64,000 bases of DNA from NCBI GenBank assembly GCA_000002435.2, contig CM018792.1; one strand, 5' to 3'. Positions within the stretch are counted from its first letter, which is position 1. The number at the start of each line of letters is the position of its first letter. Source of the stretch: Giardia intestinalis. Lineage: Eukaryota. This document shows, in pieces, positions 3,701 through 54,953 of this stretch. Made by a program: the position numbers and the translations under genes. The notes under the pieces are model-generated. The model had not been told where the DNA came from, did no database searches, and saw only the letters and a list, made by a program, of their open reading frames with translations.

Positions 3701-4589
3701 GCTTAGCGGGGACGAGTGCAAGTGCATCGTGGGATGTGTCAAGCTGGAAAAGCATTGCAATGTGATGTATCAAGGAATTCCTTTCTTCTTGAGAGATGAG
3801 CATCGGAGTATGCTTATCTGGAGTGCAGGGAGTGTTTATGTTATTATTAGTAATCTCTCCGTGTAGCGGACTTATACCGAAGCCGTCCTCAACTGTCTGG
3901 CATAAGAAAGTGTGTAAGAAGGCTGATGTAAAATAAGTTGGATGATAGGCACCGTTAAATACATATGATGAGAGAGTGATTCTTTTGGCTTCTGAAAGGT
4001 TTGCTGGTCGCGGCGGAAGAGAGGAATATTGGCTGATGACTTGTCGAAGGATTGTAAAGGATTCCCTGGCGAGGAGACCGACTAACTCTTCCAGTTTATC
4101 ACTTTTTGCAATCATGCCATAGCGCCACAGTGCGCAAAAAAGAGATACTGCGGAAACACGTTGCTGTCTATTCACGTCCGAGGGTGCAAGGGTTTCATCG
4201 ATATTGTCTCGGAAGGCAGGACCTTTTGGAACTAGCAACTTCTGTACCTGTGAGAGGATAAGCTCTACAATGTTCCTAAAAAAGATCTCTGAGACAAGAA
4301 GCATGTTGAGGACAAACGTCTCTATCTCAGCACGCCTATCTTCCGGGTATTTGAACTCACATATGGCCTTTGCTATATCAATTCCTTGAGTACCGTATTT
4401 GTACGTGTGCATGGTCGAAAAGTAATTATCTGGAGCAGATTCAATGCCTCTAAGCCTCCTTAAGAGGGTATCGACTACACTTTTTTTCGGCACGGGATAT
4501 GCTTCTGAATCAAAGTCGTCGCTCTCCATACCTCTTAGCTCTGCTATGCGGGTCTTACGCTCCTTTCTGTTGATTCGCGGAGGATACAT
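798..4589 (-). CDS. large hypothetical protein (1263 aa), no recognisable domain
   Basis: Uninterrupted 3.8 kb ORF with a real ATG at 4589..4587 preceded by TTTTAAAAA. It is convergent with the HMG gene with a 56 nt gap. Nothing in the translation let me assign a function. Confidence 0.55.
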   Translation of the reverse strand: MYPPRINRKERKTRIAELRGMESDDFDSEAYPVPKKSVVDTLLRRLRGIESAPDNYFSTMHTYKYGTQGIDIAKAICEFKYPEDRRAEIETFVLNMLLVSEIFFRNIVELILSQVQKLLVPKGPAFRDNIDETLAPSDVNRQQRVSAVSLFCALWRYGMIAKSDKLEELVGLLARESFTILRQVISQYSSLPPRPANLSEAKRITLSSYVFNGAYHPTYFTSAFLHTFLCQTVEDGFGISPLHGEITNNNINTPCTPDKHTPMLISQEERNSLIHHIAMLFQLDTSHDALALVPAKPLIPREELSTLPRGILSCFDYMIRLFHVEYKIYALFKETVSILSQEFGALSKESLCDGELEWGNHLCKCNTYFCNILNTLGLNMIVPTVLNQLSVSPRSTKAFITSAFDLCPSERERYVSIINFESGKLADVYTNEISEIDSLRRYPLSLTQSYRVLEDKYKENLDTVYALLNKDIQKAIDSVFKQYYDSTPRASSVEKLQHLLFDPKRITRIGINPGDITLLLQSIRNQTEEHVIILLLVKFLNFKDTTSIITINSVFRQVFCRRFAIPETCCHYYAHLYACLCINRIIPIVGPLQTDSDEHKLYPAHIQCQNALSRILINEDRDVERDDATFHLIRCVNHLSCFNLLKIKDLISCMTKASNRLSRVEQISFKSKRLIMTLYNIIYHNYYFWYSSCPEICINVNKIHSIVSDVVKRQESKAIKDWYEVLVNVRYKPLLAHIDKYIQEQQERKGSTPNLERIHEEYSNSVRSYLNTNSGRFTHSLAYQWLKKRLLSFLKEAQPLYSKQLDTTFPQYITSLLTRLNNDSRSAVTTTSSSEPEDNENGLSYVEDFSASTVVSMEDILLDLRNSIIAHFSPNVEPLLHSFLTKTLSLLNFTDLSHGTDPIDFLPAGFYDRIYKEIKEKYDKHNRFHHIENDYAMYNDRLLPPAPTPHELSTVFLSLDVLSSDTVRPLAALITCMHHSDSKNLQIGSRRIMAALMDTLESAIAIGNEQQASATGLLLVELVKLGMVEYSAISNVVSTFILSSDCIFKLSSTHLSSYGTELDSLWFKLDKKLIPLSQEFATHENLYIDQQQEYTRLFNKYKFLSLEQQLGYRISYPSDSGIRSSNMFALGMQMMNSFIHHFVTGMIAHFMGIPECASVKVSFALKEEILRDYVKVCLYSQCRQCEITALLSNLLDETVKYSNVLIDAKQLINMQINLAIFSETITSASKFVVANDFSYRSSLKPFCDLIRRFLVTAPSAKME

Positions 4590-4782
4590 TTTTTAAAACA
4601 GACAGGGCCAGTTTACTGATTGCTGATTGGCTTTTCCCGAAAGCTTGCGAGGCTTAACTGTAGGCCGGCGGGCGTCTCTGATAGATCCTGATAGACAGCT
4701 CTGTTGTCAAACACTTTGCACCCGTTGAGAGCAATGGGAGTAAATCTAAAGTTCCACATCAACAAACATTAGAACATTTTAA

Positions 4783-5202
4783 ATGGCTGACATAGCAGGC
4801 TATATCACAGAGGACCTTAAGTGTACAAACATGCTTACTGATGGTCTCAAGAATATCGCTCTTGAGGCCCGTGAGACAGTTATTTCTCAGTTGGCGACAA
4901 TTCGAGAACTGGAAGAGGAGCACCAAGTCAGCAGCGCACAGCTGCAAAGATTGATGGAGAATATTGGGACGAGATCTGAAACTGCAGCAAGCATGCACAA
5001 GTATCTTACAGAGCTCGAAGAGGAGGACCGACAGATTGCGAAACTTCTTTCAGCTATCAAATACCAAGTGAACACATACTATGGGTGTATCTATCTTTTA
5101 CTGGGTAAGAGGCCACTTGCTATGCCATGGGACGTCGACAGAGTCAGTCCGGTATCTTTGCGTAACAGTTGCACAGTTGACCTCTGTGTAGGGGATCAAT
5201 AG
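4783..5202 (+). CDS. small hypothetical coiled-coil protein (139 aa); 3' end overlaps Kae1 on the opposite strand
   Basis: Real ATG at 4783 on an AT-rich initiator (aacattttaaATG). The first ~100 aa look like a heptad/coiled coil (ELEEEHQVSSAQLQRLMENIG...LTELEEEDRQIAKLL). The last ~35 codons overlap the Kae1 3' end (5098-5202) and look less protein-like. Confidence 0.35.
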   Translation: MADIAGYITEDLKCTNMLTDGLKNIALEARETVISQLATIRELEEEHQVSSAQLQRLMENIGTRSETAASMHKYLTELEEEDRQIAKLLSAIKYQVNTYYGCIYLLLGKRPLAMPWDVDRVSPVSLRNSCTVDLCVGDQ

Positions 5203-6288
5203 ATCCATTGATAATGGAGCCTGAAGCATACACGCCCCGCACCAGGCGATCATTGCCCCGTTATCGACACAATAGCTATCGTCCATCGCCCCCAATCGCC
5301 CATTTCTCTCTGCGGCCATAATTTGGAGCATCTCCTGAAGACGCAGGTTGCAGCCCACACCTCCTACGGCCAGAATGTCGGCTGCACCCACGTGAGCAGC
5401 AGCCCTTTCAGTTATTTCCACCAGAGATCCGAAGAGCGTCTCCTGGAGGCTATAGCAAATTAGCCGGGGATCGAGAGAGGTGTGTGTCTCTACATATGTT
5501 TTCAGATATGTCGAAATGCCACTACATGAGATGTCCATTCCCTTTATGGGAACAGGGATCGTTGTGATAATTGGTATATCGTAACTTGTATCTATACCTG
5601 CCTCGGGATGGTTAGCAGAATACAGCTCAAGTTGTTCTTTAAGAAGCTCCTTAGACCGTGGCAGTGTGGTGTATCGAGGCACAATATCCGGGTCTAGATG
5701 GACACAATCCTCCTCACGGAAAATAGCTGCCCACTCAGCTGCAAGCCGCTCGATATTGAGCCCGGGGGCAGGGGTGTTAGAAATCAGTAGGTATCGAGCA
5801 ATCCGGTCCAAGGCATTTCCTACTGCTATGTCTAGAGCCTCCCCGAAGACACGATATCGGCCTTGAGAGTAGGCTATGACCTGGGTGTTTCCTCCAGACG
5901 CGTATAGAACGACTGGATTGGGCAGCTGCGTGACCAAGCGGCCCATTTCTATATGGGCGACGCAGTGATTCACTGCAAGCAGCGGCACCTTCCAGAGCTG
6001 TGAAAGGGTACGCGCAACTACGGCTACTGCGGCCAACGGTGCCCCAAGACCCGGCCCGCGGGTGTATGCAATGTGAGTTATCTTATCGGAGGATATTTCT
6101 GCCTCCAAAAGGGCTCTTTCGATAAGGCCTATAATGTGCTGCCTGTGATGCGCCGCAACGTCGTTTGGTTGGAAGCCTTGCCCCGGCGGCGCGTTATATG
6201 TACTCCTTAGATTTGCATGCACAACACCCGAGGCGTCTACGATACCTACACCAAGCTTGTTTGCAGATCCCTCCAAGCCAAGGATCAT
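5098..6288 (-). CDS. KAE1: Kae1/OSGEP, tRNA N6-threonylcarbamoyladenosine (t6A) synthesis protein of the KEOPS complex
   Basis: Full-length match to the Kae1/OSGEP/Gcp family. It has the N-terminal MILGLEGSANKLGVGIV, the metal-binding HCVAH (HxxxH) motif, and GGNTQVIAY and GGVGCN motifs. Real ATG at 6288..6286. Confidence 0.88.
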   Translation of the reverse strand: MILGLEGSANKLGVGIVDASGVVHANLRSTYNAPPGQGFQPNDVAAHHRQHIIGLIERALLEAEISSDKITHIAYTRGPGLGAPLAAVAVVARTLSQLWKVPLLAVNHCVAHIEMGRLVTQLPNPVVLYASGGNTQVIAYSQGRYRVFGEALDIAVGNALDRIARYLLISNTPAPGLNIERLAAEWAAIFREEDCVHLDPDIVPRYTTLPRSKELLKEQLELYSANHPEAGIDTSYDIPIITTIPVPIKGMDISCSGISTYLKTYVETHTSLDPRLICYSLQETLFGSLVEITERAAAHVGAADILAVGGVGCNLRLQEMLQIMAAERNGRLGAMDDSYCVDNGAMIAWCGACMLQAPLSMDLLIPYTEVNCATVTQRYRTDSVDVPWHSKWPLTQ

Positions 6289-13876: not shown

Positions 13877-15964
13877 ATGTTTGCTCCTGGCAATTCAGCC
13901 AGAGCCCAGCGGCAAGTCATCCCCGGTGACCACTTCGGCCTGGTGATAACAAGTGGTAGATCGGTCAGCAAGGGCAGAGATCAGGCCAGTGATGCGCCGC
14001 CACCTCCACCAGCTCGCTCCGCCGCGGTGGCCCGTGCACGTCGTCCATACAAAATTGGCCCAACCGGCACATCTGGGACCAACCTCATCTTTGCCCCTGC
14101 CTCGTCTATAGTCCATAAGGCTGTATCTGTACCAAAGCAGTACAAGCACTACGCAAGGGACCCCGACGACAAGATAGAGCCTTTCTCCGCTGCGGCCTCC
14201 AAGGACACTACATCAAAAGGTAGCAGCGTGACTACTCAGCCAATGTCGTCACAGAGATCCAAGACAACATCTGTTCGCCAGCCCAAAGCAGTAACTCAGA
14301 CCTTATATCAGCAACAGCAGGAAGCCTCTCTTCTCCATGGCAACAAGCTAGGTGCTAACTATGCGGGGAAGAATCAGCCCATTGTTTACATTAAAAGCAA
14401 ACCCCCCTCTACCACAAACTCCCGCACCACAACCCCAAAGCGAGGGGCTTCTACCAGCACACGATCAGAAAGAACAGCATCCACCTCTGTTTCCCCAAGG
14501 GCTGTCGCGACAAAGCTCAGTCAACGCACACCATCCAGCAAGGGCCGGGGTGTTGTCGCCGCAACCACAACGCCAGCTGATCAAAACAGATCACAGCTGA
14601 AGGGAAGTGCTTTTCCCCGCGAAATTACAGCAGCAGAAGTCCTTTCCTCGCACAAATCCGATCTTACACCGTTTGAGCAATCAGAGATCCAACGGTTCGC
14701 CAAGATATACTACTGGGGCCAGCAGGCAAATAAGCAATACAACGGAGCAATCAACCACGGATATGATGATAGCCGTGGGGACTACATCGGAGTCATCAAT
14801 GATCACATCATGTACAGATATGAACTAGTCTCGAAGCTGGGGTCAGGGTCGTTTGGGAAAGTATATAAGGCTCTGGATCATAAGGAACAGCAGTTTGTCG
14901 CTCTAAAGATTATAAAGAACAGGAAGCGCTTCCAGAGGCAGGGCCTGGTCGAAGTAAAGATTCTAGAGCTACTACGTGACAACGATCCCAATGGAGACCA
15001 ATGCTGCGTGAAGGTACTTAGCAGCTTCTACTTTCGCTCACATCTCTGCATAGCGTTTGAGCTGCTGTCGATAAACCTATATGAATTGCTAACTAAAAAG
15101 GATCTTAAGGGCCTTTCTTTGTCGTTGGTCCGGAAGTTTTCTCTACAACTTTTAATTGCATTTGCATACGCTCGGAAGCTGAGGATTATACACGCAGATG
15201 TCAAACCCGAGAACATTCTCTTGCGGGAACCCGACAAAAGCAGTATCAAAGTCATTGACTGGGGCTCGGGGGCAATGGTGTCAGAGACAATCTACTCCTA
15301 TATTCAGTCCCGCTTTTATCGAGCCCCAGAGGTTATTCTTGGTCTTCCTTACGGTCAAGAGATAGATATCTGGAGCATTGGTTGCGTTCTCTGTGAGCTA
15401 TACACCGGGCTGCCTATCTTCCCGGGCGATGACGAAAGGGATCAGCTAGGAAAGATATGTGAGCTGCTGGGGATGCCACCCAATGACATGATCTTCAAGA
15501 GTCCCCGTAAGAACGACTTCTTTGTTAACATAGGAACGGGGATGGGTGTGGCAGGGGTATCAGAGGGTGGAAACCCCATCTTCAGCGGCAATCTGCAACA
15601 GCTTTCCAGTGTCAACGAATATCTGCAAGCAACAGGTCGAGGAGCCGGCGGCAGTGAGGTGCCAGGGATAAGGCTCCGCACGACCCACAAGGTTAATTCT
15701 AAAACTCTGTCTGGTGTCCTCAATGCACCAGACGACTTCATATCCTTCATCAGTCTTTTTCTTCAGTGGGACCCTCAAAGAAGGTGTACACCCGAGGTTG
15801 CTATGTCGCATCCGTGGATACAAGAGGGAATACGACAAATTAATGAGCGTAATGCTCGTCCTAGTAGTACTGCAGTACGTGCGGTGGATGCACGACCAGA
15901 CTCTAGGCGCGTTGCATCTGCCAGCCAGCGGCCGCTGCTTCCTGCACTCAGTCCAAAAAAGTAA
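13877..15964 (+). CDS. DYRK-family dual-specificity protein kinase
   Basis: Real ATG at 13877 (cttaagtaaATG). It has an N-terminal S/T/P-rich low-complexity region. The kinase domain has GSGSFGKV, VALKII, HADVKPENILL, and a DYRK-type activation loop (IYSYIQSRFYRAPEVILG) with the YxY motif. The stop TAA is embedded in AGTAAAC (15960-15966). Confidence 0.85.
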   Translation: MFAPGNSARAQRQVIPGDHFGLVITSGRSVSKGRDQASDAPPPPPARSAAVARARRPYKIGPTGTSGTNLIFAPASSIVHKAVSVPKQYKHYARDPDDKIEPFSAAASKDTTSKGSSVTTQPMSSQRSKTTSVRQPKAVTQTLYQQQQEASLLHGNKLGANYAGKNQPIVYIKSKPPSTTNSRTTTPKRGASTSTRSERTASTSVSPRAVATKLSQRTPSSKGRGVVAATTTPADQNRSQLKGSAFPREITAAEVLSSHKSDLTPFEQSEIQRFAKIYYWGQQANKQYNGAINHGYDDSRGDYIGVINDHIMYRYELVSKLGSGSFGKVYKALDHKEQQFVALKIIKNRKRFQRQGLVEVKILELLRDNDPNGDQCCVKVLSSFYFRSHLCIAFELLSINLYELLTKKDLKGLSLSLVRKFSLQLLIAFAYARKLRIIHADVKPENILLREPDKSSIKVIDWGSGAMVSETIYSYIQSRFYRAPEVILGLPYGQEIDIWSIGCVLCELYTGLPIFPGDDERDQLGKICELLGMPPNDMIFKSPRKNDFFVNIGTGMGVAGVSEGGNPIFSGNLQQLSSVNEYLQATGRGAGGSEVPGIRLRTTHKVNSKTLSGVLNAPDDFISFISLFLQWDPQRRCTPEVAMSHPWIQEGIRQINERNARPSSTAVRAVDARPDSRRVASASQRPLLPALSPKK

Positions 15965-32280: not shown

Positions 32281-34650
32281 TTAGTCCCACTTCACATCGT
32301 CCATTGCAGCCCACAGATACGTAACAGAGTTATTTGAACTCTTAAGGTGTTTCTTCATATCGGTTATCACTGCAATCATTGGAATGTCGTATAGTAGCTC
32401 ATACATATTTCCTCTGTCATCAGATAAGATGGCGTGTACATCACTACTAAATACAATCTGTCTTATCCTTCCATTAAAATCTAGCGAACAGTGCACTGAC
32501 CCTGTACCAAATTCATAAATGGTAAGTGTAGACGCATTGTGCTTATGAAAAACTGTGGACACCAAGAAATAGGCACCCACTGGGTCAAAGTAGATAGTGT
32601 GCTCGCCTTCGTCAAAGATCTTATGCGCAGATACAGACACTAACTTGCAATCCGGTAGAGTATAAAGCCCAACACCAACATCATGCACTATTACGGTATA
32701 CATCGATGAAGGATGAACAGCAGCACACGAGAGGGTCATGGATGCCAAGGAGTACACTCCACATATACGAATATATGGTGGCTCTGCAGTTGTAGCGAGG
32801 ACAGAAACGGACTTCTGGTAACGGGTAGAAAGCAAGAGATAGTCACCATATGCCACACCTCTGTCGCATGCCAAAAAAGAAGTCAATGCGTTGAATGTGC
32901 ACTTTCTTGAGAAAAGGCTGTAAGCGGCCAGACTATCTAAAGCAGGAACAGAGAGCAGATGTAGTTCTTGGTCCGTTAGAAGGCAAATCCAAAGTGGCAT
33001 GTTTTCCTCCTGGTTCATCAGTACTGCATTCTGAGACAGATCCTTTTGAGTAGGCGCAAGAGGGCCAGCAACAAAACATCCAGCTTGGTAGCTGTTGCTA
33101 TCAAACGTAAGGCCCTTTTTACTGCATTTCCTTATATGCTTAAGCCTGAAGTAAGACTCCATAGATCTCGATTCATCCGGACGATGCATTAGTGCTTCTA
33201 AAAGAATTAGATGTGTGTCAGTAACAATAAAGGCGTAGTGTTGGTAGTAGGGATCTATAACAAAATCTAAGCAGGGACCGTGGAAACTTGGTTCAAGAAA
33301 GAAGGATCTGGGCACGTAGACGTGCAGCTTAGGACTAAAAGATGTCTGGAAACTAATAATTCTTAACGTGGTAGTGCCAGTTGTAACAAGACAAAGGTCT
33401 CGAAAGGGAATAATGAAGGCTGGGTGCGTGCAAAGTCCAAGGCAAGGTGCAATGGAACGTGATGCAATATCACCAAGAAATACTGCGCCTATCCTAAAGA
33501 CTACAAACACATTTGGATAGCTATTTATATCCAAGAAAGCAACTGCCAGAATAGCTCCGTTGACACGTGCATGCTGTCGGAGATCTAAGGTGGTGATAAG
33601 AGCAAGAGATGTACAATTATATATAGAAACATATCCTGATACGTGACCCACTACTAAGTAGTTGTTTTCTAGGTGAATGTAGCTGGCCAAAACGGTATCT
33701 CCCGCCAAGTCTTTGCGAGAAAGAATTGACCAATCAGAACCGTATAGGTAGAGCATGTCCTTGCACACACAGAGCACATGGTTTGAAAGCAAAACTCTCA
33801 CATCAAGGACTGTGCGCCCCCGGGTACCAGGTAATTGTCTGGAGGATGCCGATAATGTTTTATCACTTGTCAATTGTACCATAGAATTAGATTGATCACA
33901 TGGGATGGATGCTGATTGGACTGTTAAATGCTGTCTGTACCTAGCTTTGACAGATCTTAGCTCGAGATCTGTTAATAGAGGTAAATCCGTCCGCTCTACG
34001 TGCTCAGTGAATTGCGGAAAGACATCGCGCATTGCAATCCTACTTTGAGCAGCGCTTGAGGCGTGATTGAAAGGGCTTCGGGTAGTCCATATGTGAACAT
34101 AGTTGTCAATCTCCTGATCTTCTTGGACTTGTACTACCAAAAAATAGCTATATAACGTATCAGTCTGCACCACTCCTGCTGAAATAATAGTGCCCAGAGT
34201 CATTTGAGGGGCTAGTGGAAGGTCGTGAAACAGAGAAAGGATATTTTCTGAAAGCTTGTAGCTCCGAGCGAAATGCATCCCTATAATAAGCAGTATATCT
34301 CCACAAGCCCATAAGAGTGCAGTGTTCTTAACGGATATCTCCGCTAGCTTGGTATGAGTGTTCAAGTTCCAGCAAAAAATGGAACTTTCGTCAGCCGAAT
34401 AGATACGTCCAGATCCCGCAGCAATACATATAACGGATGAAGCATGTTCGCAAAGAGAGCCAAACACCCCGGTTTTGGAGCACCAGTAAATAACTTCTTT
34501 GCCGACTCGAAAATAGACCCGTCCTGCTTCTGCAACTGGAGATAGACGGGGTACGGATATGTCTGTCTCTGCATAGATTTCTGCATTGTGCATGTGCAGG
34601 TCTATTGGGAAAAGCGTGGGCACCGCGGGACCCACGCAACCTATCTGCAT
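32281..34650 (-). CDS. hypothetical protein (~790 aa), possibly beta-propeller-like
   Basis: The track ORF starts at TTG 34779; the first ATG is at 34650..34648 (MQIGCVGP...). It abuts the AT-rich element shared with the divergent gene. No recognised catalytic motif. Confidence 0.5.
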   Translation of the reverse strand: MQIGCVGPAVPTLFPIDLHMHNAEIYAETDISVPRLSPVAEAGRVYFRVGKEVIYWCSKTGVFGSLCEHASSVICIAAGSGRIYSADESSIFCWNLNTHTKLAEISVKNTALLWACGDILLIIGMHFARSYKLSENILSLFHDLPLAPQMTLGTIISAGVVQTDTLYSYFLVVQVQEDQEIDNYVHIWTTRSPFNHASSAAQSRIAMRDVFPQFTEHVERTDLPLLTDLELRSVKARYRQHLTVQSASIPCDQSNSMVQLTSDKTLSASSRQLPGTRGRTVLDVRVLLSNHVLCVCKDMLYLYGSDWSILSRKDLAGDTVLASYIHLENNYLVVGHVSGYVSIYNCTSLALITTLDLRQHARVNGAILAVAFLDINSYPNVFVVFRIGAVFLGDIASRSIAPCLGLCTHPAFIIPFRDLCLVTTGTTTLRIISFQTSFSPKLHVYVPRSFFLEPSFHGPCLDFVIDPYYQHYAFIVTDTHLILLEALMHRPDESRSMESYFRLKHIRKCSKKGLTFDSNSYQAGCFVAGPLAPTQKDLSQNAVLMNQEENMPLWICLLTDQELHLLSVPALDSLAAYSLFSRKCTFNALTSFLACDRGVAYGDYLLLSTRYQKSVSVLATTAEPPYIRICGVYSLASMTLSCAAVHPSSMYTVIVHDVGVGLYTLPDCKLVSVSAHKIFDEGEHTIYFDPVGAYFLVSTVFHKHNASTLTIYEFGTGSVHCSLDFNGRIRQIVFSSDVHAILSDDRGNMYELLYDIPMIAVITDMKKHLKSSNNSVTYLWAAMDDVKWD

Positions 34651-34662
34651 GTGATAAAAATT
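34651..34662. promoter_or_regulatory. 12-bp AT-rich bidirectional initiator element between head-to-head ATGs
   Basis: GTGATAAAAATT lies exactly between the minus-strand ATG (34650) and the plus-strand ATG (34663). Giardia promoters are short AT-rich initiators placed just 5' of the ATG. Confidence 0.5.
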
Positions 34663-37600
34663 ATGCGTCCCGCTGCCAATAGTACTGTCTATGATACATT
34701 CTACGATCCCGATTTGGTGATGCCACCACTCAAGAATCCCATGGCGACGACAGCAAAACAGCCCGGCGTTTATCCACAACTTACGTCCCGTGTAGCCACT
34801 CTGAGCACATACTCTGGCGATGCACTTTCTGCCAATCCGCGGCGAAGTTACTCTACCGACAGAAGCATGCAGTCGGCAGAGAACCTCATTGCCTCTCTTT
34901 ACGGGAAGAACAGAGCAGTACCCGAGCCGCGGAAGTTGAATGACAATACTTTTGTTGACACACTCCCGATTAATAAGCCCACAATTTCGACCTCTAACAC
35001 GAACTCAGTGTATGATAAGCTTATTAAAGATCCGGCAAAGCGGCAAACTAAGGCTTTGGCAAAGATCGATAAAGAGTCTCTGATGGATGAGATACAGACA
35101 CTTCGCAAGCAAAAGAACGCGCTTGAGGAGCTCACGCGTAAGCAGCAGACAAGAATTTCCCGCCTCGAGGAGCTTTTGAAGTCTAGAGACAAGGAGTTGC
35201 AGAATTTGACGCGAATGATAGCCACCGGCATTCCAGATCCAACCAAAGTGACGGATATGATGGCACTCAAGCAGAAGGAGACCGCTCCGACAATGGACTA
35301 CGTAAAGGGGCTAAAGCATAAGATGAAGGAATATTACGTTAGAAACCAAGAACTGCTCAGCTTTATCGACAGACTGAAGGACAGTATGAACTTTCAACGC
35401 ATGAGGCAGCTAGAGAAAAACCTCCTAATCTATTACGATAAATATAACCAGCTGCGAGTGAAAAATGGTTCCCTTAATCAACACTGCATCGAGCTTGAAG
35501 AGGAGCTTGGAGTGGTTCATGACAAGATGCTTCAAAGCTTACGAGCGAGCAAGAAGTACCAAGGAATGAGGCTATCTGGAGATGCTCAGGATGCTCGGGA
35601 TGACATTATTGCTAGCGTAAGCTCAAGCAAAGACGGAAAGTACACTGGTCCGAGTGCACATGCTTCTCTCATTAGTGGTTCGAAGCAGCGTGAACCAGCT
35701 GCAGAGCCAGATGGCAAGTTTGTCTCTGATATATTTGATGTTTCCAATGTCATGCCGAATGCCAGTGAATCAGGGAAGGCCATCCAGGATCAACTGAACA
35801 AACACTCCATGGCGCTTCAGACCTCGATGATTGCAAATCAGAAGAAGCCTGCCGAACGGGGCCACAGCAAGACGAAGAATGCGAACGAGAAAAACGACCC
35901 TATAGCAGAGCTTGCTGCACGGTTCTATGAGAGCAGGCTGGAGCGTGAACGTAAGCGCTTGGAGTGCTCCTTTATTCCTGATGTCCCTGCTCCCCTTGAA
36001 CAGGTGGAATATAAGCTTATTGAGGATGAGTTTGAAGAGTTTCTGAAGAACTATCGAATTGATAAGACTAGCGACCTTCTTGAAACACAAGGGAATCAGC
36101 AATCCGCGCCGAACCTAGGGAAGCCTACAGGAAACCAGGGAGGAGCTATGGTTCTTAGTAGGGATGCTGGTGCTAAGCAGGCCCAAACAAAGCCCGAAAA
36201 GCTTGCGCGCCGCTTGGTTACGGAGATAAAGCGCTCAGAAGTGGCCTCTGCAGTTTCGGCACAGGCTTCTAACTCACACGAGTCTACAAGTAAGACGTCT
36301 CCTAATGCTATGAAGCGGGAAGAAAACCCTTACTTTGTGCAGAGACGGCCATCTAAGGATACCTGTAGCGAGAAGCCAACCTCGGTATCTGGCAATAGGC
36401 CATATGAAGACACCGACAACGGCTCGACTATATGCGATTGGAACTCGTTTGTCGAACCAGAAATGGTTAGCCGCGTTGGTGTGACAATGACAGAAGTAAC
36501 ATCTGCTGGTGGTCCACGACCGCGGCCAAAGACTCCCTTAAGTGACACATCTGGGCTAGGAGGTGATTCAAAACCATCCAAAAATCCTAATAGCTTTTAT
36601 CCCAATCTGCCGTCACAAAGTGACAAGTCGGCACCTGCTCAATCAGTGCCAGAGGAGGATTCTGGTGTCAAGAATAAGAAACCAGCTGAACAGCTGTCTA
36701 ATTCCGATACTGACTTGCGTAATGAAAACGATCAGAAAAGCACAGATAGAACTGAGGAAGAACCAGCCCAAGAGCAACAGAAGACTATCTCATTTGATCC
36801 TCTCTTTGATCGCTCCCCCGATGAAGCTAAAACGATTAGCGATGCCGTTCCCCCTCCTGAGATAGCGTCTCTTAAGTCAAGTCCTCACGCAACAGATCAG
36901 ACGCAGGATCCTATTATTGTGCAAAGTGTGACGCCAAGAGAGCTCATTGACGAAGCACCAGCTGATGTGCCATCTCAGGCTTCAGTGCAAGATGAGGCCC
37001 AGTATCCTGAGGATGACGAGACGTTCTTGGCCAGTACAGCCAAGCACGTCATAATCCATGAAGAGAACGACGGTGTTATTAACGATTCTGTGAATATAAC
37101 GACGATGGATAGCAAGCCAACAGATACAAAGACTGAGGATATAAGCCTTGGAAATGCCACGTTTGACAGTGGGGTAGAAGAAAACTCGATTCTCACTAGG
37201 TTCCCTCTTACTAATGTGGCTCACGCCAAGCAGGACAACTGCTCTTTGCTTTCACAATCACATATTGACAAGGATGAGCAAAACTCTAACTTGCCGGACT
37301 TGTCCGGGAATCAGACACACGAGTCAAAGACTACGATTAAGGATTACTCTTCTCTAGTTTTAGATTCGCATATGTTCGACGATCCCAAGGCCGTGCAGGA
37401 GCCTTCTGGAGAGGGCACAAAAGACTATTCTTCCCTTCAATTGTATAGTGGGATGTTCGATGGCGGAAACCAGAAGAGCGTTACCGGACCAGACAGTGTC
37501 CGCGATTACTCCTCTCTACAACTTCACAGTGCCATGTTTGACGAGCCCCCTGCATCAAAGTCACACCCGCTCCAAAACAGTGGTGATTATTCATCTCTCC

Positions 37601-51805: not shown

Positions 51806-52525
51806 CTAAACTGATAGGGGAAGATTTAAGTAGTAGCGTATAGGACCATCTGCCTGCGTGTCCACCAACAGCTGTCCCTTACTCTTCATATACTCAAGCT
51901 CCTGCTCGCATTGCTCCCTTGACCACTGACTTAGCTCCCTCAAATTATCAACGGTGGTGAAAGGCATTGCTACGTCGGTATCAAATAGGAAAGAGAGAAT
52001 TCTCAGAGAGTTTTCGCCCATATTGCTGTCACCCAAACTTATATATTTCTTCTCGTCACTACCAATCCTGTTTGGAAGTAATTCGTAGTCACTGGAAAGC
52101 TCCCTCAGACGTTTGAGGGATGCTACAATGTCTCTTAGCTCGATGGCGTGGGCGCTAGGTCTATCCTTGTTGAGGTAATTGTGGAGTACTTTCAGAGGCA
52201 TAATCCTCCCCGATGAGTGCCTGTGATAAGAGCAGAACTCAGCTATCTTAACGTCGAGTTGCGTCTGAAGTTGGTCGCTCGGTATCCCAGTTGCACCTGG
52301 AATACAGAAGACATCCGCCCTCAGCGATGTGCACAGGTTGTTCAGAGAATTCAACAGGGACCCCTTGTCTTCCGCGTTATGCACTTCACTCATGTGATCT
52401 CGGAGAAAATTAACGACCATGTCACAGCATTCGTCGCGCTTTCTGGAAAGTGTGTTGTAATAGTCACGGTTCAGGCTCTGCAGTTGTTCGCAGACGGCGT
52501 TGGAAAGCTTGATATCGTCAGCCAT
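51806..52525 (-). CDS. VPS22: ESCRT-II subunit Vps22/SNF8 (EAP30)-like
   Basis: Real ATG at 52525..52523 (aaaaaatcataATG). The C-terminal half aligns to SNF8 tandem winged helices (GRIMPLKVL ~ GGLITLEEL; SQWSREQCEQELEYMKSKGQLLVDTQADGPIRYYLNLP ~ LKWETERARQVLEHLLKEGLAWLDLQAPGEAHYWLP). The alignment was done by eye. Confidence 0.55.
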   Translation of the reverse strand: MADDIKLSNAVCEQLQSLNRDYYNTLSRKRDECCDMVVNFLRDHMSEVHNAEDKGSLLNSLNNLCTSLRADVFCIPGATGIPSDQLQTQLDVKIAEFCSYHRHSSGRIMPLKVLHNYLNKDRPSAHAIELRDIVASLKRLRELSSDYELLPNRIGSDEKKYISLGDSNMGENSLRILSFLFDTDVAMPFTTVDNLRELSQWSREQCEQELEYMKSKGQLLVDTQADGPIRYYLNLPLSV

Positions 52526-52544
52526 TATGATTTTTTATCTGATC
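52526..52544. promoter_or_regulatory. 19-bp AT-rich element between head-to-head ATGs (Vps22-like / AAA ATPase)
   Basis: TATGATTTTTTATCTGATC separates the minus ATG 52525 and the plus ATG 52545. The plus track ORF begins at TTG 52500, inside the Vps22 CDS. Confidence 0.4.
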
Positions 52545-54953
52545 ATGGAGCCCGGAAGAAGGTACCCCGGCACACTCAAGACCGCTGCATTAACAACTGA
52601 AGAGGGGAGGCCGTTTCCTGGTTGTTTTGCTACCTGTCGTACCATCGTCGAAATTAGCAGCTATTTGGAGTTTATTAAGGAGTCAAAGCGTCTAGAAGGC
52701 AGGCGTGAAAGGACTGACCCTCCTTTGGTGGCCCAGCCTCCCACTTACATTAAGACAGAGAAAAAGCCTGAGCCCGTGGACATTAGGCCAGAAAGCGTCA
52801 AGAACGCTCAAGCGAATTCTGGAAAAAAGTCCAAGACAGACGCTGCCCAGGAGGACGTTGGATCGCACCCTACATTGAAAAACCAAAAGCAACCAGCCGA
52901 TAAGACACCAGAGAAAAAGCTTTCTCATAATTCCAAGCAAACTCGGACTGTGGAATCCTTCTGCATTACTCCGCATAACATTCTGTTTGAGCAACTAGGT
53001 GGCATAAAGGATATCGAGAAGGAGCTCACAGAAAGAGTGCTCTGGCCCATTCTACAAGCCGATCAATACAGGTATCTCGGAGTGACTTTTGGAACGGGGA
53101 TTCTCTTGCATGCCCCAACAGGCTCAGGAAAAACAGCAATCGTACACGCACTAATAAATAAAATTCACAAGGAGCTCGGTCGGCAAATCAGTTTCTACTG
53201 CATCAACTCCACTGAAATAATCATGAGTAGAACGGGCGAAACAGAGGAGCTCTTGCGAGAGATCTTCCTAGAAGCAAAAGAGAATGCACCTAGCGTCATA
53301 TTTTTAGACAATGTGGAGATTATCTCCACACGCGGTGAGAATGTTAGCAGAGAGATGGAGAAACGCATTGTTGCCCAGCTCTGCAGTTGTATGGACGAAG
53401 TCGCATCTCATGCAAGACCTGTCTTGGAGTCCCTTTCAAGGTCGAAGTCAAACTTCACCAGCAATGCGGCGCGTGGACAAATAAGCCAGTCTGAGCCTGT
53501 TACTTCGTCAACTATAGTGCTGAATGCGCGGCCTCAACCTCAACAACCCAATGGATCTGGTGGACGAGCTGAGAATCGACAAGGAGCTCCAAAGGAGAAA
53601 CCTGGATTAGTAGGTATTGAGTCGGCAAGCACTGGCCAATACCGTGCTGTGTCACAATTAGATCAAAATAAAATAGTCATAGTTATAGGCGCAACAAGCA
53701 AAATCAACGCAATTGATGAAAGCCTTCGCCGAGCAGGACGATTCGATAAGGATATTCCCATTCCAATACCGTCTAAGAGACAGAGGATCGATATCTTGCA
53801 AAAGCTACTGATAGGCTGCAAAATAGACCCCAACCTTGACATACAGCGCATTGCAGAGAACACTCCGGGCTATGTTGGTGCAGACCTTGCTGCACTGTGC
53901 AGAGAAGCGGGGCACAGGTGTGTTTGTCGAATCATGCAAAGCTCAAACATACTGGATGGAATGGCCAAGTCAATGATAACCCTCAACGACTTCCTCTTTG
54001 CTACACAGAGCCTCATCCCCACTGCCCTGCGTGAGGGCTTTGCAACCGTCCCAGACGTATCCTTGGACGATATAGGTGCACTGGACTTCCTCAAAGCAGA
54101 GCTTGACCGTTATCTCTTGCAACCGTTGAAGAATCCGGAGCGCTTTGAACGCTTGGGACTTAACCGCTTTAGCGGGATTATCATGTTTTCTGTACCGGGT
54201 CAAGGAAAAACGCTTATTTGCAAGGCTCTCAGCGCCAAGGCAGAGATTAACTTTATATCTGTTAAAGGGCCTGAGCTATTAAATATGTACTATGGCGAAT
54301 CTGAACGGGCAATAAGAAATGTGTTTGCCCGTGCGAGAGCAAGTGCGCCGTGTATCCTCTTTTTAGATGAGTTTGACTCTCTGGCCAAACGGCGTGGTTC
54401 TGGTGGATCAAGCAGCGACGTGAGTGACAAGGTGGTGAATACTCTACTGACTGAGTTGGACGGGCTACACAACAACTTGTCCGGAGAGCACTCTCTCAAT
54501 GCTAAAAATGCCCAGGATCAGATCTTCATTATTGCTGCGACAAACAGAATTGATATCATTGACCCAGGACTACTACGACCAGGACGCTTCGACAAAATCA
54601 TATATATTCCCCTTCCCAACCTAGAAGACCGCGTCAACATCCTTTATACCATAATAACTAGACGACAGATTTCCCTAGACAAGAGCCTACAAAATCCACA
54701 AGATCTCAGAGAGTTCTTAACGGAATATTTGGCAAAGCAGACAAAGGGATGCACTGGAGCAGACCTGGAGGGCCTTGTTAGGCGCGCAGCCATGGCAGTA
54801 ATAGCAGAGTCCCAGACCGGTACAGAAATCTGCAAAAGGCACTTTATGACAGCCTTGTCACAAACAAAAGCCTCTGTCAACGAGGAAGACAGGATCAAGT
54901 ACGATATGATGGCGGCGCATTACTCCAAGCTATGCATATCGGAAAATAAGTGA
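52545..54953 (+). CDS. double AAA+ ATPase of the CDC48/NVL/Rix7 family
   Basis: It has a K-rich N-terminal region (nuclear-type). D1 Walker A is LHAPTGSGKTAIVHAL. D1 has a long insertion after Walker B (VIFLDN...), then RFDKDIPIPIPS (arginine finger/sensor). D2 has VPGQGKTLICKAL, ILFLDEFDSL, ATNRIDIIDPGLLRPGRFD and GCTGADLEGL. Confidence 0.75.
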   Translation: MEPGRRYPGTLKTAALTTEEGRPFPGCFATCRTIVEISSYLEFIKESKRLEGRRERTDPPLVAQPPTYIKTEKKPEPVDIRPESVKNAQANSGKKSKTDAAQEDVGSHPTLKNQKQPADKTPEKKLSHNSKQTRTVESFCITPHNILFEQLGGIKDIEKELTERVLWPILQADQYRYLGVTFGTGILLHAPTGSGKTAIVHALINKIHKELGRQISFYCINSTEIIMSRTGETEELLREIFLEAKENAPSVIFLDNVEIISTRGENVSREMEKRIVAQLCSCMDEVASHARPVLESLSRSKSNFTSNAARGQISQSEPVTSSTIVLNARPQPQQPNGSGGRAENRQGAPKEKPGLVGIESASTGQYRAVSQLDQNKIVIVIGATSKINAIDESLRRAGRFDKDIPIPIPSKRQRIDILQKLLIGCKIDPNLDIQRIAENTPGYVGADLAALCREAGHRCVCRIMQSSNILDGMAKSMITLNDFLFATQSLIPTALREGFATVPDVSLDDIGALDFLKAELDRYLLQPLKNPERFERLGLNRFSGIIMFSVPGQGKTLICKALSAKAEINFISVKGPELLNMYYGESERAIRNVFARARASAPCILFLDEFDSLAKRRGSGGSSSDVSDKVVNTLLTELDGLHNNLSGEHSLNAKNAQDQIFIIAATNRIDIIDPGLLRPGRFDKIIYIPLPNLEDRVNILYTIITRRQISLDKSLQNPQDLREFLTEYLAKQTKGCTGADLEGLVRRAAMAVIAESQTGTEICKRHFMTALSQTKASVNEEDRIKYDMMAAHYSKLCISENK

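Follow-up and report, generated by a model that had tools for sequence, protein, structure and literature searches.

A conserved A/T-rich element between the head-to-head Giardia genes GL50803_14949 and GL50803_14950

The window analysed here, a stretch of 64,000 nt of Giardia intestinalis DNA (contig CM018792.1 of assembly GCA_000002435.2), contains the genes GL50803_14949 on the minus strand and GL50803_14950 on the plus strand (hereafter 14949 and 14950). These are two real divergent genes. Both start from the first ATG of their frame, and a non-coding stretch of 12 nt separates them. The spacer holds one A/T-rich element, ATAAAAATT. We assign a probability of about 0.6 to the reading that, at this genuine pair of divergent genes, ATAAAAATT is a typical initiator for 14950 and most likely also starts 14949. 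Shared initiation between head-to-head Giardia genes is an idea that has already been published (PMC1885649, PMC3792122), and a tight head-to-head start is an ordinary trait of the compact Giardia genome. What is mildly notable is that the tight arrangement is conserved to G. muris and that it provides a natural minimal test case. Because two conserved genes have a single A/T patch available, the locus is a convenient natural substrate to test whether one initiator works both ways, and it adds one more compact, conserved example of minimal Giardia promoter architecture.

Conserved start codons of two divergent genes

On the plus strand the junction reads ...cctatctgCAT GTGATAAAAATT ATGcgtccc..., in which the CAT at 34648-34650 (A at 34650) is the start codon of the minus-strand gene, the ATG at 34663-34665 is that of the plus-strand gene, and GTGATAAAAATT, at 34651-34662, is the spacer. 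An earlier note on this DNA had placed the start codons at 34650 and 34663 with a short gap between them, and direct reading bears this out. The sequence is that of G. duodenalis isolate WB, and the annotations of isolates WB, DH and GS begin at these same codons. For isolate DH (A2) they give DHA2_151457 (789 amino acids, aa) and DHA2_14950 (1097 aa), and for isolate GS (B) GL50581_866 (789 aa) and GL50581_867 (1094 aa). The coordinates of both genes and of the other features are collected in Table 1.

We compared the junction in WB and in four further G. duodenalis lineages: L005, an A2-like isolate (Logan SRR3177919); L001, which is of assemblage-B type and whose proteins cluster with GS proteins; and L002 and L003, two more divergent lineages represented by Logan assemblies. 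Both the CAT and the ATG are fixed in all five, and the spacer measures 12 or 13 nt, with a 1-nt indel. The 14949 orthologues of WB, L001, L002 and L003 are all 2370 nt long with the N-terminus MQI, and the fractions of invariant sites at their first, second and third codon positions (0.52, 0.66 and 0.24) follow a coding-type pattern; 14950, too, is conserved with substitutions of this type. The 14950 orthologues all begin with MR. A downstream methionine was considered as the true start of 14949 and rejected, as none is conserved among the four lineages; gene-caller versions of 767, 770, 780 and 784 aa merely dodge over-extended neighbours. Across the same lineages the amino acid identity of orthologues is 58-61% for 14949 and 78-85% for 14950. 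The two neighbours thus differ strongly in evolutionary rate, yet the length of 14949 is kept at 789 codons in all four orthologues.

All five G. duodenalis lineages have the head-to-head arrangement, and so does G. muris. In the latter, the 14950 orthologue GMRT_14530 (L004, 6001..9042) and a 14949 orthologue of 716 aa (3839..5989; 25% identity, E=1e-18) also stand head to head, across an 11-nt spacer, TCCAAAAAAAG, whose A-rich strand is the sense strand of the 14950 orthologue, the same orientation as in G. duodenalis. GMRT_14530 starts at the homologous methionine (MSVEGGAQTYDSYYDPD versus MRPAANSTVYDTFYDPD), and in both species this methionine is followed by eight residues and then YD. The earlier note had proposed to check whether orthologues begin at the corresponding ATGs; those of other assemblages do, as does the 14950 orthologue of G. 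muris.

Such close spacing is not unusual. Intergenic regions have a median of 81 bp in G. intestinalis WB; in G. muris the median is 37 bp and 9.5% of the genes overlap (PMC7641422). The six head-to-head spacers in the window measure 298, 502, 12, 509, 57 and 19 nt, and those in the 15-kb G. muris locus 11, 23 and 56 nt.

Table 1. Features of the locus, junction sequences in five G. duodenalis lineages and the second tight gene pair (CDS, coding sequence)
Feature	Coordinates	Strand	Remarks
GL50803_14949 CDS, hypothetical protein, 789 aa	32281..34650	-	100% match to P0001 = GL50803_0014949
GL50803_14950 CDS, hypothetical protein, 1097 aa	34663..37956	+	exact match to XP_001707787.1 / GL50803_0014950
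Variable linker, GTG in WB	34651..34653	.	GTG, GCG, GTGT, CGGT, GGAT in five lineages, 1-nt indel
A/T-rich initiator-like element ATAAAAATT	34654..34662	+	invariant in five lineages; abuts the 14950 ATG
14949 codons 1-13, candidate upstream promoter segment	34612..34650	-	weak; about -6 to -45 of the predicted 14950 start
WB junction			CAT-GTG-ATAAAAATT-ATG
L005 junction			CAT-GCG-ATAAAAATT-ATG
L001 junction			CAT-GTGT-ATAAAAATT-ATG
L002 junction			CAT-CGGT-ATAAAAATT-ATG
L003 junction			CAT-GGAT-ATAAAAATT-ATG
EAP30/Vps36-family gene, second pair	51806..52525	-	ATG at 52525
Double-AAA ATPase gene, second pair	52545..54953	+	true ATG at 52545

The A/T-rich element and possible initiation in two directions

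The A/T patch described in the earlier note is present, although not as the 12-bp element that had been claimed. The conserved element is 9 nt long, ATAAAAATT, because the 3-4 nt beside the 14949 ATG vary freely; in WB these are GTG, so that ATAAAAATT sits 3 nt from the 14949 start codon. With the AT of the 14950 ATG it makes up a pure A/T run of 11 nt (34654-34664), and no other pure A/T run as long as 9 nt lies between 33625 and 35438 (~780 nt on each side). All nine positions of ATAAAAATT are invariant, compared with 19% of four-fold degenerate sites (28/144 and 41/217; WB, L001, L002, L003), which corresponds to a naive P of ~3e-7, and ATAAAAATTATGCG is the longest invariant block in the 413-nt alignment of the five lineages. 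ATAAAAATT is therefore under purifying selection. Such runs are enriched at gene starts in the window: of its 69 pure A/T runs with 9 nt or more, 12 fall within the 1.2% of the sequence that lies no more than 25 nt upstream of predicted gene starts. Likewise, five gene ATGs have ATAAAA in the sense orientation among the 25 nt that precede them, where 0.23 would be expected.

From 8000 transcription regions, Tolba et al. (2013, PMC3792122) derived an A/T-rich consensus that spans -5 to +5 around the dominant transcription start site (TSS), and the frequent variants of this TSS-seq consensus include AAAATAAAAAT. The last eight contiguous bases of the local GTGATAAAAAT match this variant, the common part being ATAAAAAT. 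Judged by its sequence, ATAAAAATT would be typical of the published Giardia initiators (Inr) of Holberton & Marshall (AATTAAAAA), Yee et al. (ATTTTAAAAT) and Tolba et al. (PMC3792122), with which it shares a pure A/T block of 8-11 nt adjoining the ATG, the stretch held in common with AAAATAAAAAT, a leader that would be shorter than 14 nt, and the enrichment at gene starts in the window. It differs from them in that the 5' side is GTG and not A/T, that its start site is a prediction from sequence, and that the opposite-strand reading of the patch, AATTTTTATCAC, has no A-run downstream of the putative start. Mutation of A/T initiators sharply cuts expression, and TSSs lie inside them (PMC3792122 citing Yee et al.; PMC1885649). 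Giardia leaders are reported to measure 1-14 nt, and the ribosomes not to scan for the AUG (PMC3610916); short leaders have been reported to be necessary for translation (PMC3610916; PMC1885649).

By analogy with the TSS-seq consensus, the 14950 mRNA would start on an A within ATAAAAATT, at ~34654-34656, and would carry a leader of 7-9 nt. The same patch read on the minus strand (AATTTTTATCAC-ATG) would most likely start the 14949 mRNA, with the A at 34655 or at 34661/34662 as candidate start bases and a leader of 5-12 nt. The predicted leaders of both genes fall within the range published for Giardia. The case for shared use is drawn from two general properties, namely that very short leaders are needed and that Giardia promoters are inherently bidirectional, as 5'-rapid amplification of cDNA ends (5'-RACE) and a dual reporter have demonstrated (Teodorovic et al. 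2007, PMC1885649). Locally, no other A/T patch is found nearby, and the first codons of 14950 are G/C-rich. A further point in favour is that a second pair in the window, described below, repeats this architecture in five lineages. Cases in which both directions start at the same nucleotide between adjacent genes have been seen by TSS-seq (PMC3792122), and the ran/phd pair with its 153-bp common region is the cited head-to-head precedent (PMC1885649). Like ran/phd and the TSS-seq cases of Figure 6A,B (PMC1885649; PMC3792122), the present locus has divergent protein-coding genes, a short common upstream region and a sole A/T patch between them. Unlike at ran/phd, the spacer is ~10 times shorter, one element fits into it and divergent transcription is a prediction from the sequence. 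In the light of these loci, initiation in both directions from a single element is plausible at this pair. Whether the Inr itself acts in both directions was left open by Teodorovic et al. (PMC1885649) and has been debated by Tolba et al. (PMC3792122).

Several points weigh against shared use. A weight matrix scores the plus orientation at just 1.3 bits (top 0.4% of positions) and finds no positive-scoring site in the minus orientation; this matrix is crude and, because it was made from only 17 published top variants, too strict and narrow to decide. With 7 T in 13, the predicted leader of 14949 is richer in T than is typical of the window; the two T-richest leaders in the window belong to 14949 and to the partner gene of the second tight pair described below. 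According to Tolba et al. (PMC3792122), a symmetric consensus is no predictor of use in both directions, and symmetric sites that are used in one direction only also occur. Moreover, the conservation of ATAAAAATT could in part reflect the leader or translation context of 14950 and not the choice of TSS. A full-text search by gene identifier and a search of the readable parts of supplements (Tolba 2013, Franzén 2013, Einarsson 2016 and the 2021 encystation map) yielded no usable transcript 5'-end or expression data for either gene, the one hit to '14950' being a coordinate, and a literature search for recent Giardia long-read or TSS studies gave none that was relevant.

The foremost alternative is that ATAAAAATT serves 14950 only, while the 14949 mRNA starts inside the coding sequence of 14950, among its first ~35 nt. 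The two 5' ends would then overlap and nothing would be shared. The asymmetry of the element agrees with this: read in the direction of 14950 it is A-rich, and thus canonical, but 14949 reads the T-rich strand, in G. duodenalis as well as in G. muris, and the consensus matrix has no match in the minus orientation. Tolba et al. (PMC3792122) found that many apparently bidirectional loci are composed of two nearby or overlapping unidirectional initiators, and that ~31% of transcription regions lie up to 40 nt from the ATG rather than within 14 nt. In addition, no upstream ATG occurs in the minus sense as far as 34696. The sequence in which such a second initiator would have to lie argues the other way. 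A/T runs of 9 nt or longer are absent from the first 20 codons of 14950, and synonymous constraint is not in excess in these codons, 3 being invariant among the 12 that are informative (P=0.58). The stretch right after the plus-strand ATG (CGTCCCGCTGCC) is G/C-rich; the requirement for short leaders in translation (PMC3610916; PMC1885649) also tells against it. On balance we regard two separate initiators as unlikely, if a contender to be taken seriously.

In its strongest form, the idea of a shared initiator would make ATAAAAATT alone a complete and sufficient bidirectional core promoter, firing at ~34655 and ~34656 on the two strands and kept since before G. duodenalis and G. muris split. 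If true, few natural divergent promoters of RNA polymerase II would be as short, and the locus would be a minimal system for studying how the Giardia polymerase chooses its direction. We consider this quite improbable. Complete Giardia promoters span ~50-60 bp (PMC1885649, PMC12209930), and the promoter probably extends past the spacer into the flanking coding sequence. Since the spacer can hold just one element, TATA-like or upstream elements, if any, have to be located within coding sequence and, given promoters of that size, further elements of 14950 would lie inside the 14949 coding sequence.

Codon usage at the 5' end of 14949 offers a weak hint that upstream elements of 14950 may be embedded in its codons 1-13. 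Five degenerate codons in this segment encode a conserved amino acid, and all of them are codon-identical in four lineages, compared with 22% gene-wide. When a variable sixth informative codon, at position 17, is added, the count becomes 5/6 (binomial P ~0.003), which is matched by 2 of 308 sliding windows; the test was made post hoc, on few sites and with four lineages. Constraints that act on the 14949 mRNA at its 5' end could explain this codon conservation equally well. The region from -20 to -40 of 14950 (GTGGGCACCGCGGGACCCACG) is G/C-rich and contains no TATA-like A/T box. A conserved block on the plus strand, AAGCG(T/C)GG, occupies 34612-34619.

The excess synonymous conservation in these codons also fits an explanation in which the A/T block is kept mainly as the leader and start-codon context of 14950, with the transcription start being set within the 14949 coding sequence. 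In both Giardia species, A is enriched over as many as 13 nt before the start codon (PMC7641422), which points in the same direction, as does the finding that the Giardia TBP shows no preference for A/T-rich initiators in vitro (PMC12209930). Mutagenesis and TSS-seq have however put start sites in such A/T elements, whose alteration led to a severe loss of expression (PMC3792122 citing Yee et al.; PMC1885649); translation and transcription roles of the block are, moreover, not mutually exclusive. We judge a mainly translational explanation to be quite improbable as well.

The apparent overlap of the reading frames

The ORF (open reading frame) track of the window is a mechanical six-frame list that allows bacterial (table 11) start codons. 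It lists 32281..34779 on the minus strand, from a TTG, and 34588..37956 on the plus strand, from a GTG, which overlap by 192 nt. The earlier note had put this overlap at ~190 nt, attributed it to TTG and GTG pseudo-starts and held that it vanishes once the real ATGs are used. All of this is correct: the overlap is an artefact that arises because table-11 starts were applied to a eukaryote. Both ATGs are in frame with the track ORFs, 129 nt (14949) and 75 nt (14950) downstream of the pseudo-starts, and in WB each is the first ATG of its open frame. The resolution of the overlap is not new, as it is already the reference annotation, and its use is mainly one of quality control, bacterial-style ORF tracks being prone to make false overlaps in Giardia.

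The earlier note had named conserved coding sequence upstream of either ATG as the observation that would speak for a true overlap. Instead, the 1-nt indel means that any reading frame through the spacer is shifted between lineages, and stop codons interrupt the upstream frames, after 39-51 nt for 14949 in L001, L002 and L003 and after 24 nt for 14950 in L001 (assemblage B). In-frame upstream ATGs for 14950 do exist in some lineages and are lineage-specific: at -15 in B and L003, where they derive from the CATG junction, and at -18 in L005, through a change of CTGCAT to the palindrome ATGCAT. It is because of these non-conserved ATGs that gene callers report longer 14950 products of 1099, 1103 and 1120 aa. 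Antiparallel coding overlap was accordingly rejected as a candidate. That one or both coding regions start upstream of the ATGs, at a non-ATG or other codon, is effectively refuted: the WB frames are open for 354 nt and 117 nt upstream and some lineages carry the upstream ATGs just mentioned, but the frames are shifted by the indel and closed by stops elsewhere, WB has no upstream in-frame ATG for either gene, the lineage-specific ones are not conserved, and the 14950 orthologue of G. muris starts at the homologous methionine.

The palindrome in L005 is an observation in its own right. At positions 4001-4006 of that sequence (homologous to 34645-34650) the ATGCAT polymorphism sets two start codons back-to-back. 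It causes 14950 to be called at 1103 aa and brings about a Q2H change in 14949.

A second tight pair and the gene products

A second tight head-to-head pair in the window consists of an EAP30/Vps36-family gene and a gene for a double-AAA ATPase (Table 1). Its WB spacer is 19 nt long and, as at 14949/14950, it contains one asymmetric A/T element, ATAAAAAAT in the sense of the EAP30 gene, and leaves the partner with a T-rich leader. Across the five lineages the junction has the form CCAT-[15-23 nt containing AATTTTTT]-ATGGA(G/A)CC, and both ATGs are conserved. It differs from the first pair in that the length of its spacer is more variable (15-23 nt) and in that WB and P15 possess an extra, non-conserved ATG. 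This codon, at 52527, is the first ATG of the ATPase frame in WB and lies 1 nt from the ATG of the partner; in P15 and three further lineages the orthologues begin with MEPG, at the ATG of 52545. As the first ATG is not conserved here, the first-ATG rule is not universally safe: it mends 14949/14950 but would mis-call the AAA ATPase at 52527.

Scans of the 14949 and 14950 products against Pfam returned only sub-threshold matches, to a Vps8 beta-propeller (E=0.036) for 14949 and to ANG-1 (E=0.004) for 14950. Residues 894-987 of the latter (37342-37623 in the window) contain four copies of the motif DYSSL(V/Q)L(D/Y/H)S(H/G/A)MFD with a period of exactly 27 residues. This motif matches no Pfam family, and it is kept in the G. 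muris orthologue as DYSSLVLNSRMFD, DHSTLNLHSGMFD, DYSSLNLHSGMFD and AYSSLNLHSGMFD.

Elsewhere in the window, two tandem genes meet at 15964/15970 with a gap of 5 nt, and an AAAAAAG run precedes the second ATG inside the coding sequence of the first gene. By inference from this sequence, the promoter of the downstream gene would lie within the upstream gene.

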